Shown: positions 28,143-29,647, counted from the first letter of the stretch. The stretch: DNA of 64,000 nt from an uncultured Trueperaceae bacterium (GCA_963799485.1 CAWCXJ010000006.1:480001-544000); one strand, 5' to 3'. The notes: a model not told the origin generated them from the sequence alone. Numbers and translations: made by a program.

Positions 28143-28151
28143 CTTGTATGT

Positions 28152-28292
28152 TGAGGATGGGACACGGCACGGCAGAGCGTCGCCCCTTAGGTTCTAAAGA
28201 CCGTAAAAAAGCTAGTCTCGTCGTGCTGTTGTCTTCAGCCTAAGCCCGAACAGTTACCCGAGCAATAAGCTCGCATCTGCAAGGTTGGGCTA
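28152..28292 (+). ncRNA. Predicted IS110 bridge/seek RNA
   Basis: Two stem-internal loop-hairpin modules whose loops match target flanks and donor junction; ends approximate. Confidence 0.75.
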
Positions 28293-28317
28293 CGCTGGAG
28301 CGTCTCACGGAGGTGAC

Positions 28318-29262
28318 ATGCTTAACGAAGTGTTGGTGGCTGGCGTAGACGTCGCCAAGTACCGTCTCGATATCGCGATCATACCAAGCGGTGAACGCCT
28401 TTCACACGCCAACACGCCAGACGGTATCGGCGAGTTGGTCAAGCTGCTGAGGCATCTACAGCCGAGCCGCATCGTTCTTGAGGCCACCGGCGGTTTGGAG
28501 CAGCCCTTGGTCATCGCCCTGGTTGAGGCAGCGCTACCTGTGGTGGTGGTCAACCCAAGACAGGTGCGTGATTTTGCTCGGGCCCTGGGCAAGCTGGCGA
28601 AAACCGACCGGATCGATGCTGTGGTACTCGCTGAGTTTGCAATCAAAGTCGCACCTGCTTTACGTAAGTTGCCTGATAGCGCCACACGTGCCTTGGACGC
28701 CCTGGTGACGCGGCGTAGTCAGCTGGTGCAGATGATAACCGCCGAGCGCAACCGCCTACACGCCTGCAACGACGACAGTGTGAAAGCCGATATTGATGAG
28801 CACCTGAAGTTCCTGGAAAAGCGTCGCCAGCACCTGGACGAGGCGTTGCTTGAAGCTGTCAAGGCTGATCCCTCGACCAAGGCACGTGACCATTTACTGC
28901 AGAGCGTGCCAGGCGTGGGTCCGCAGGTATCCCTGGTGTTGCTGGCGAACTTGCCGGAACTGGGTAGCCTCACGAGAAAGCAGATCGCTGCGTTGGTGGG
29001 CGTCGCACCTTTGAATCGCGATAGCGGTCTCTGGCGGGGCCGAAGGAGTGTGTGGGGCGGTCGGCGTGACGTGCGCACCGCCCTTTACCTGGCAGCGCTG
29101 TCGGCCTCACGTTACAACCCCCTGATCCGCCCACTCTATGAGCGCTTGCTGCTCAAGGGCAAGCCCAAAAAGGTAGCGTTGGTTGCCTGTGCCAGAAAGC
29201 TCCTATGTATCTTGAACGCGATGATCCGCTCCGGAAGCTCCTGGCGTCCAGCTGCTACTTGA
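28318..29262 (+). CDS. IS110 DEDD recombinase
   Basis: GVDVAK, EATGG, KTDRIDA, SVPGVG, NRDSG catalytic Ser; RBS GGAGGTGA. Confidence 0.96.
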
Positions 29263-29647
29263 CAAATGACACAGTTGCTTTTTTGGTAATTGCTATACTC
29301 GTCAGCACCATCAGGTCGGTCTTGCAGCCGGGAAAATAACCCTGACCATTCACGTGCCGGATTTGCGAAAGCGGAATAAACGCTGCCTGTCCTTGGGTCT
29401 GAGCCGCGTCCGTATAGCTCTCACGCCCGTGCAAGCATGGTCGGCTGCGGAAGCTGCTGCACACCTCCGGGTTGACTGCAACAATCTGTGTCGGCGAGGC
29501 CGTCGGGGACGGCAAAGACCGCGAGGAGCGGTAAAGATGCCGCGTCGCGCGAATATGTGGGTTTGGCGCTAGGCACGGCGTCCTCCAGCTCGGTAAAGCT
29601 TGGTCCCCTTCATTCTTGGTTTCCCTACCGACACGCTCGCCAATCCG

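Follow-up and report, generated by a model that had tools for sequence, protein, structure and literature searches.

The segment 28145-29279 of the window (the whole 64-kb stretch of DNA that was analysed, from an uncultured Trueperaceae bacterium) is very probably an intact IS110-group insertion sequence that works like IS621 of Escherichia coli, which is described as a bridge recombinase with a 177-nt bridge RNA (PMC11208160, PMC11208158). It is present in four identical copies with exact ends, encodes a protein of the IS110 family, and has a left end whose predicted RNA structure is conserved among orthologues and whose loops are complementary to the insertion sites and to the joined ends of the element (Table 1).

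Table 1. Features of the IS110-group element and its surroundings, in window coordinates
Feature	Position	Strand	Evidence or remark
Host DNA left of the element: 3' fragment of an interrupted IS5-family transposase gene	27976..28144	-	NF033580
CT core, left junction, common to target and element	28143..28144	+	CCCCT precedes all 4 copies
IS110-group element, 1135 bp including the right-hand CT core	28145..29279	+	Four copies 100% identical over 1-1135
Left end, non-coding, 173 nt; starts with right donor arm TGTAT	28145..28317	+	CTTGTAT kept in orthologues
-10 hexamer TATGTT of the putative split promoter	28147..28152	+	TAT..T kept in orthologues
Match to covariance model R1, no 5' stem-loop ahead	28163..28292	+	91.9 bits, E 1.4e-20, full length
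Left target guide GTCGCCCCT, seven bases plus CT	28179..28187	+	25/36 against four left flanks
Right target guide AAAAAAG	28205..28211	+	28/28 against CT plus TTTTT at four sites
Handshake bases CT, target loop	28212..28213	+	C28212 complementary to donor position 7 (G)
Left donor guide ACAGTTAC	28250..28257	+	7/8 against donor ACAGTTGC, mismatch at position 7
Right donor guide ATCTGCAAG	28275..28283	+	Pairs with CTTGTAT, one G.T wobble
Handshake bases GT, donor loop	28284..28285	+	G28284 complementary to target position 7 (C)
Recombinase gene, 314 aa plus stop	28318..29262	+	GGAGGT 5 bases ahead of ATG
-35 hexamer TTGACA of the putative split promoter	29259..29264	+	Overlaps the stop codon
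Right end: left donor arm ACAGTTG plus CT core (ACAGTTGCT)	29271..29279	+
Right target TTTTT, flank outside the element	29280..29284	+	Same at all 4 copies
Candidate target sequence for the recombinase			GTAGCCCCTTTTTTA

A DNA search of the element's own assembly gave four copies at 100% identity over the 1135 bp, at C7:561835 (+), C7:319203 (-), C6:508145 (+, the window copy) and C1:22603 (-), numbered 1 to 4 below, together with two shorter matches, a relative of 155 nt (75% identity) and a fragment of 27 nt. The element starts with TGTATGTTGAGG and terminates with ACAGTTGCT, with CT cores at 28143-28144 and 29278-29279, and its left end of 173 nt compares with a right end of 17 nt. The left flanks of the copies are, in turn, GAGCCCC-CT, GTAGCCC-CT, CGTCCCC-CT and TTGACCC-CT, and on the right all four continue with TTTTT followed by G or A; the flanks are otherwise unrelated, and their common part is a 10-bp site only. 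The original prediction had expected other copies to sit in sites resembling CGTCSCC-CT-TTTTT, and all four do lie between CCC-CT and TTTTT, with identical ends. Joining TGTAT from 28145 to ACAGTTGCT at 29271-29279 also gives the donor ACAGTTG-CT-TGTAT that had been put forward.

The exact ends follow from the host of copy 4, an IS4/5-type element with six uninterrupted paralogues of about 80% identity. Since these paralogues are colinear and gap-free across the reconstructed junction of copy 4, the ends are exact and CT alone is common to target and element. Terminal inverted repeats are absent when the ends are read by eye, and the only duplication at the ends, in the four copies and against the paralogous empty site, is the CT core. 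Two further candidates for empty sites had to be set aside: the C13 paralogue of the IS5-like host of the window copy ends 40 nt before the junction, and for copy 1 the flank on the ribH side matches relatives only within the gene, at 65-74% identity, and was unusable as an orthologous empty site. The 27-nt fragment, at G000:C12:16654-16680 (+), corresponds to nucleotides 1-27 of the left end and lies directly 3' of GTGACCCCT; this remnant marks a fifth insertion site, since deleted.

Three of the four copies (2, 3 and 4) are in IS-derived DNA. The match of the left host DNA of the window copy to NF033580 has an E of 4.5e-14, below the cut-off, and covers profile positions 207-258 of 258; copy 2 is at the end of an IS701-family gene (NF033540, 7.4e-8, below the cut-off) and copy 4 lies between the DUF4096 (1.1e-21) and DDE_Tnp_1 (3.6e-11) parts of its host, while copy 1 is intergenic, 3' of a lumazine synthase gene. 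The 10-mer CCCCTTTTTT occurs 15 times in the IS-excised genome, of which 4 are occupied, and the 11 free sites, inspected by eye, are in or beside ordinary-looking gene frames, none of them IS-like. Loss of harmful insertions explains this pattern of occupied and free sites, and no special preference is needed. Read from the opposite strand the site is AAAAAAGGGG, and in the host of copy 4 it falls where the DUF4096 and DDE (-1 frame) frames meet. Two diverged frames in head-to-head orientation (L002 1203-1478, -, and 2636-2816, +) flank copy 2; they resemble each other (…SVPEVQHWF…, …SIQEVRRLL…) and have no Pfam or NCBIfam match, and a further frame in the neighbourhood matches the last part of the IS701 transposase profile.

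The element is likely active, as supported indirectly by its four identical copies at four different places, by a right flank in the metagenome run X2 that is absent from all four copies, and by a variant of 96-97% identity with other flanks in run X5. The same identity could have arisen in an element that looks intact but is immobile, through gene conversion, recent duplication of larger segments or polishing of a repeat. Repeat identity can be inflated in assemblies, and the perfect identity of the copies could be partly due to polishing; in addition, neither a right-left circle joint nor an empty-site joint was found in the contigs of runs X1 (possibly the sample of origin, and not independent), X2, X3 and X5, although contigs cannot show the absence of such joints. 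An immobile element is nevertheless unlikely, given four unrelated flanks with only a 10-bp site in common, the open frame with all its catalytic residues, and the additional flanks in X2 and X5. Moreover, a search of 30 relatives, of which 5 belong to the same genus, 13 to the same family and 12 to the same order, gave no copy of the element.

The protein encoded by this likely mobile element matches both Pfam domains of the family, PF01548 (DEDD_Tnp_IS110, E 4.4e-26) and PF02371 (Transposase_20, E 7.2e-18), and passes the cut-off of NCBIfam NF033542, "IS110 family RNA-guided transposase", with 223.8 bits against 140. Its best solved relative, as determined with phmmer, is the IS621 transposase (8wt6_A, E 2.6e-41, residues 3-307), followed by the ISCro4 transposase (9t56, E 1.4e-40, residues 4-307). 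When the 2 extra N-terminal residues of the solved chain are allowed for, D11, E55, D97, D100 and S236-G237 align with D11, E60, D102, D105 and S241-G242 of IS621, where mutation of any of the five catalytic residues is reported to abolish recombination (PMC11208158). All five are kept, in a RuvC-like DEDD N-terminal domain and a Ser-Gly Tnp C-terminal domain, which bears out the earlier statement that the DEDD and Ser motifs are intact. A tblastn search of the genome gave no further IS110-type genes.

To describe the left end we used 79 related loci, whose proteins are 51-60% identical and which come mostly from metagenome-assembled genomes, with one from Deinococcus pimensis. One of the 79 loci was dropped for its short upstream stretch, as were two exact duplicates, 21 of 77 without both sequence anchors, and 16 more that were near-duplicates or had mis-anchored starts; the remaining 39 were aligned with the window (alignment A1), and the covariance model R1 was built from these 39 with the window left out. 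The R1 match listed in Table 1 is the only one in the window, and over the whole genome there are five, corresponding to the four copies and to one orphan left end (the 75% relative). RNAalifold on the 40 left ends gives 26 pairs, 17 of which have compensatory changes. In the predicted RNA, the first loop is enclosed by a long basal stem with a bulged A and a short apical stem, and the second by a basal and an apical stem. The window has a C.U at the fourth pair of the basal stem of the target loop, which counts against the proposed reading. Folded alone, the 173-nt left end also forms two stem-loops with internal loops, so that the two stem/internal-loop modules originally described are seen both in a single fold and in the 40-sequence consensus. 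The fold energy is unremarkable (z = -1.12, with 29 of 200 shuffles as stable), and the case for the RNA therefore rests on comparison. No match on the + strand of 27500-30000 was found in Rfam (release 15) up to E 10.

The first loop is complementary to the target including the core, the bottom strand being matched by its 5' side and the top strand by its 3' side. On the 3' side, AAAAAAG (the seven bases after a conserved GACCGU) is the sole 7-mer of the left end that is fully complementary at all four sites, the others reaching at most 20/28, and the complementarity to core and right flank that had been predicted is thus exact at every copy. In 30 elements the corresponding columns match the core and right flank at 196 of 210 positions, with 45-72 for shifted registers; this count covers 30 of the 40 elements, the other 10 being omitted because the donor guide was mis-placed by the pattern or there was no unique right end.

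On the 5' side, GTCGCCCCT (28179-28187) is the best same-sense 9-mer of the 173-nt left end against the four left flanks. The original prediction had placed this guide one base earlier, at 28178-28186, and that register matches 17/36 positions, compared with 25/36 for 28179-28187; with the flank of the remnant added, by our own count, the values are 20/45 and 32/45. Over 40 elements the modal register, which consists of the nine bases that follow GACCG, matches 218/360 positions, with 81-112 for offsets of 2-4 bases. The window is of the same class as seven orthologues whose best match lies one base earlier, with a guide that starts at the G and a 2-nt linker. In IS621 the left target guide is described as pairing from A50 to U58 through the core and as ending in CT (PMC11208158), and the guide at 28179-28187 likewise ends in CT. 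On the basis of the four sites and the orthologues, the best reading of the sequence is that the left target guide lies one base 3' of the position first proposed.

The earlier register can nevertheless be considered within the same element and mechanism, with CGTCGCCCC as guide and a non-pairing C opposite the core T. The window copy taken alone matches 7/9 at 28178-28186 and 5/9 at 28179-28187, some orthologues have C or G at guide position 9, and with G28182 bulged out 28178-28187 would match the window left flank 9/9, as read by eye. In addition to the lower counts over the four copies and the remnant given above, this placement would need a 3-nt linker ahead of the apical stem, and its offset gives the single best match for the window only, with the orthologue L033 tied there. 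We therefore hold the earlier register to be distinctly improbable. With the guide at 28179-28187, CT stands opposite the core, and the proposal that both left guides share a register with C opposite the core T fails for loop 1. It also referred to base nine of loop 2, which is not a guide position.

With the 28179-28187 guide, all sites share only the five core-proximal bases of the left target, and the four distal bases match at 7 of 20 positions over five sites including the remnant (own count), which is about chance. The predicted 14-mer agrees with the occupied sites at 13 positions for copy 2, 11 for copies 1 and 4, and 10 for the window copy, while the IS-excised genome has no position with a score of 14, 5 with 13, 59 with 12, 568 with 11 and 3873 with 10. 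Because the scores of occupied sites are met at many genome positions, the guide predicts sites only via its central ten bases. The idea that the RNA is programmed for its own insertion site consequently holds for the 10-bp centre CCCCTTTTTT and does not extend to the four distal bases of the left target. A 2026 preprint describes insertion where the site agrees with just half of the RNA (10.64898/2026.08.31.748434), which may be relevant to the loose distal recognition seen here. A free site near 506058 of C7 (+), GCCGCCCCTTTTTT, has a perfect centre and scores 13/14, and lies within a 429-residue frame. The X5 variant, from a rock metagenome, carries T>C at 28187, A>G at 28189 and A>G at 28207, all in the target loop; its right flank has no obvious fit to the changed guide, and the substitutions, seen in one contig at a depth of about 4, are possibly errors.

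The second loop corresponds to the donor. Loop 2 had been read as a nine-base guide, ACAGTTACC (28250-28258), against the left arm of the donor; the 7/8 match of its first eight bases stands, and the ninth base is no guide position. In 30 elements this base is C in 17, G in 6, T in 5 and A in 2, with the donor always T, and such a lack of constraint fits the 8-nt left donor guide of IS621. Position 7, where the single mismatch falls, is described as mismatch-tolerant in the left donor guide of IS621 (PMC11208160). On the right, TGCAAG is found at 28278-28283, pairing with one wobble as had been noted, and the right donor guide is kept as GCAT..TGCAAG in orthologues. By analogy with IS621, whose right donor guide is reported to pair discontinuously and to have a G.T wobble at donor position 12 (PMC11208158), bases 28277-28278 are probably looped out.

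Each right guide is followed by handshake bases, and C28212 and G28284 do not pair with position 7 of their own cognate DNA. The handshake pairing of the target loop is kept in 30 of 30 elements, including two A:T covariants, and that of the donor loop in 38 of 40; the two misses, L035 and L045, are errors of the script pattern and have G opposite C by eye. The A:T covariants are L034 and L039, and L032 and L073. The left end could also be regarded as a mere leader or promoter region of the recombinase gene with coincidental flank matches, as its unexceptional fold energy and the lack of a + strand Rfam family would allow, but this is hardly credible in view of the 17 pairs with compensatory changes, the covariation of loop bases with flanks across 30-40 independent elements, and an R1 match with an E of 1.4e-20.

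Beside the bridge RNA, the ends appear to carry a split promoter. The TTGACA-N17-TATGTT arrangement has its 17-nt spacing only when the ends are joined, and in 22 of 30 elements at least 5/6 bases of TTGACA are found at a spacing of 16-18 nt across the junction. No sigma-70-like site was found on the + strand of the integrated locus between 27900 and 29500, so that the sequence agrees with the view that this putative promoter is present only in the joined form.

The following cycle can be proposed, in which transcription, the circle, catalysis and programmability are taken over from IS621. Excision would join the two ends of the element at the CT core, giving a circle with the junction ACAGTTG-CT-TGTAT, and the same joining would set TTGACA 17 nt from TATGTT to form the promoter. 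Transcription is predicted to begin at about 28159 and to yield a bridge RNA of about 130-140 nt, with the recombinase mRNA downstream; since a start near 28159 would make the 5' end coincide with the base of the first stem, the RNA would be without the 5' stem-loop of IS621. The DEDD/Ser recombinase would then bind the bridge RNA, the first internal loop reading the target and the second reading the circle junction via ACAGTTAC and ATCTGCAAG. After exchange of the top strands, C28212 and G28284 would each pair with position 7 of the other DNA, and the element would be inserted after the CT of NNNNCCC-CT-TTTTT sites. As far as sequence can indicate, the protein family, the ends, the two-loop RNA, the guides, the handshake and the split promoter all agree with the IS621-type bridge-RNA system originally proposed.

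The likeness to IS621 includes the DEDD RuvC-like and Ser-Gly Tnp domains, the CT core, a long left and a short right end, the split promoter and the handshake bases. Both RNAs have two internal loops, with a left and a right guide in each, and a G-U linker that precedes the right target guide; the left donor guide has 8 nt, and the right one has 9 nt, is discontinuous and forms a G.T wobble at donor position 12. The donor of IS621 also terminates in ...CT-TGTAT. In contrast, the proteins are distant (phmmer E 2.6e-41), with 314 aa here and 328 residues in the solved IS621 chain, and the RNA, compared via published descriptions of IS621, is predicted to be about 130-140 nt long and to have no 5' stem-loop. 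The target is a C4T6 tract, unlike that of IS621, and the right target guide is fully complementary over 7 nt, whereas 4 nt are reported to pair in wild-type IS621 (PMC11208158). When the element was compared by blastn with an E. coli collection in search of IS621 DNA, the only matches were three of 88 nt in other IS110 genes. ISCro4 (PDB 9t56), the second-best solved relative, was set beside the element by protein alone.

Among the closest systems are also the IS110 elements L007-L085 from Dehalococcoidia, Nitrospira, Gemmatimonadales and others, including Deinococcus pimensis (proteins 51-60% identical), which share the left-end architecture, the donor ACAGTTGCT/TGTAT and the split promoter. 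They differ in having other target loops and targets, and most have a 5' stem-loop; left ends as short as that of the window, and likewise lacking the 5' stem-loop, are found in about 10 of the 56 anchored. Elements of the IS1111 group with seekRNA are described as having a transposase of the same superfamily and the same RNA-guided logic (PMC13604230, PMC11208160). In that group the long non-coding end is the right one, whereas here the right end has 17 nt and the RNA is in the left end. The element is an IS621-type bridge recombinase element, a new sequence of an ordinary kind, possibly already contained in the catalogues of PMC11208160. The publication of the mechanism came with predictions of thousands of such RNAs (PMC11208160).

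Knowledge of the IS110 family is unchanged by the element. It adds one more well-documented natural bridge recombinase system, and a compact one, with a 314-aa enzyme and an RNA without 5' stem-loop, and its four fresh-looking copies provide four natural target sites, besides the remnant and an orphan guide. It is also a worked example of natural sites that depart from the guide, with ten central bases strict and the distal left target loose, and it could be a candidate orthologue for tool screens.

The orphan left end is located at G000:C6:714989-715117 (-), loci L005/L086, on the contig of the window and outside the window itself. It is 75% identical to the left end of the element and scores 98.4 bits with R1. 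Its right target guide is AAAAAAG, as in the four-copy element, and its left guide differs, AAGACCCCA matching its own flank GAGACCCCT at 7/9 positions. Within 6 kb there is neither a recombinase remnant nor a right end; downstream, an InsA frame resembling that of IS1 is recognised by eye. In the IS621 synaptic complex, the target loop and the donor loop are reported to come from two different RNA molecules (PMC11208158), and for this reason the orphan RNA could act in trans. That it does so with the recombinase of the four-copy element, and thereby widens the set of sites, is very doubtful. If true, the orphan, together with RT-dominated relaxed left-target recognition, would represent natural trans-supplied guides for a bridge recombinase.

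On the minus strand, 28151-28309 gives a full-length sub-threshold match to RF02234 (sX15, Xanthomonas), with 26.4 bits and E 0.11 against a gathering score of 55. The consensus of the sX15 model resembles the reverse complement of a donor-binding loop, and sX15 and asX7 are described as a plasmid-borne pair complementary to each other, for which 10 homologues are given in Stenotrophomonas maltophilia (PMC3300014). The resemblance and the complementary pair suggest, from sequence comparison, that sX15/asX7 may be an IS110 left end.
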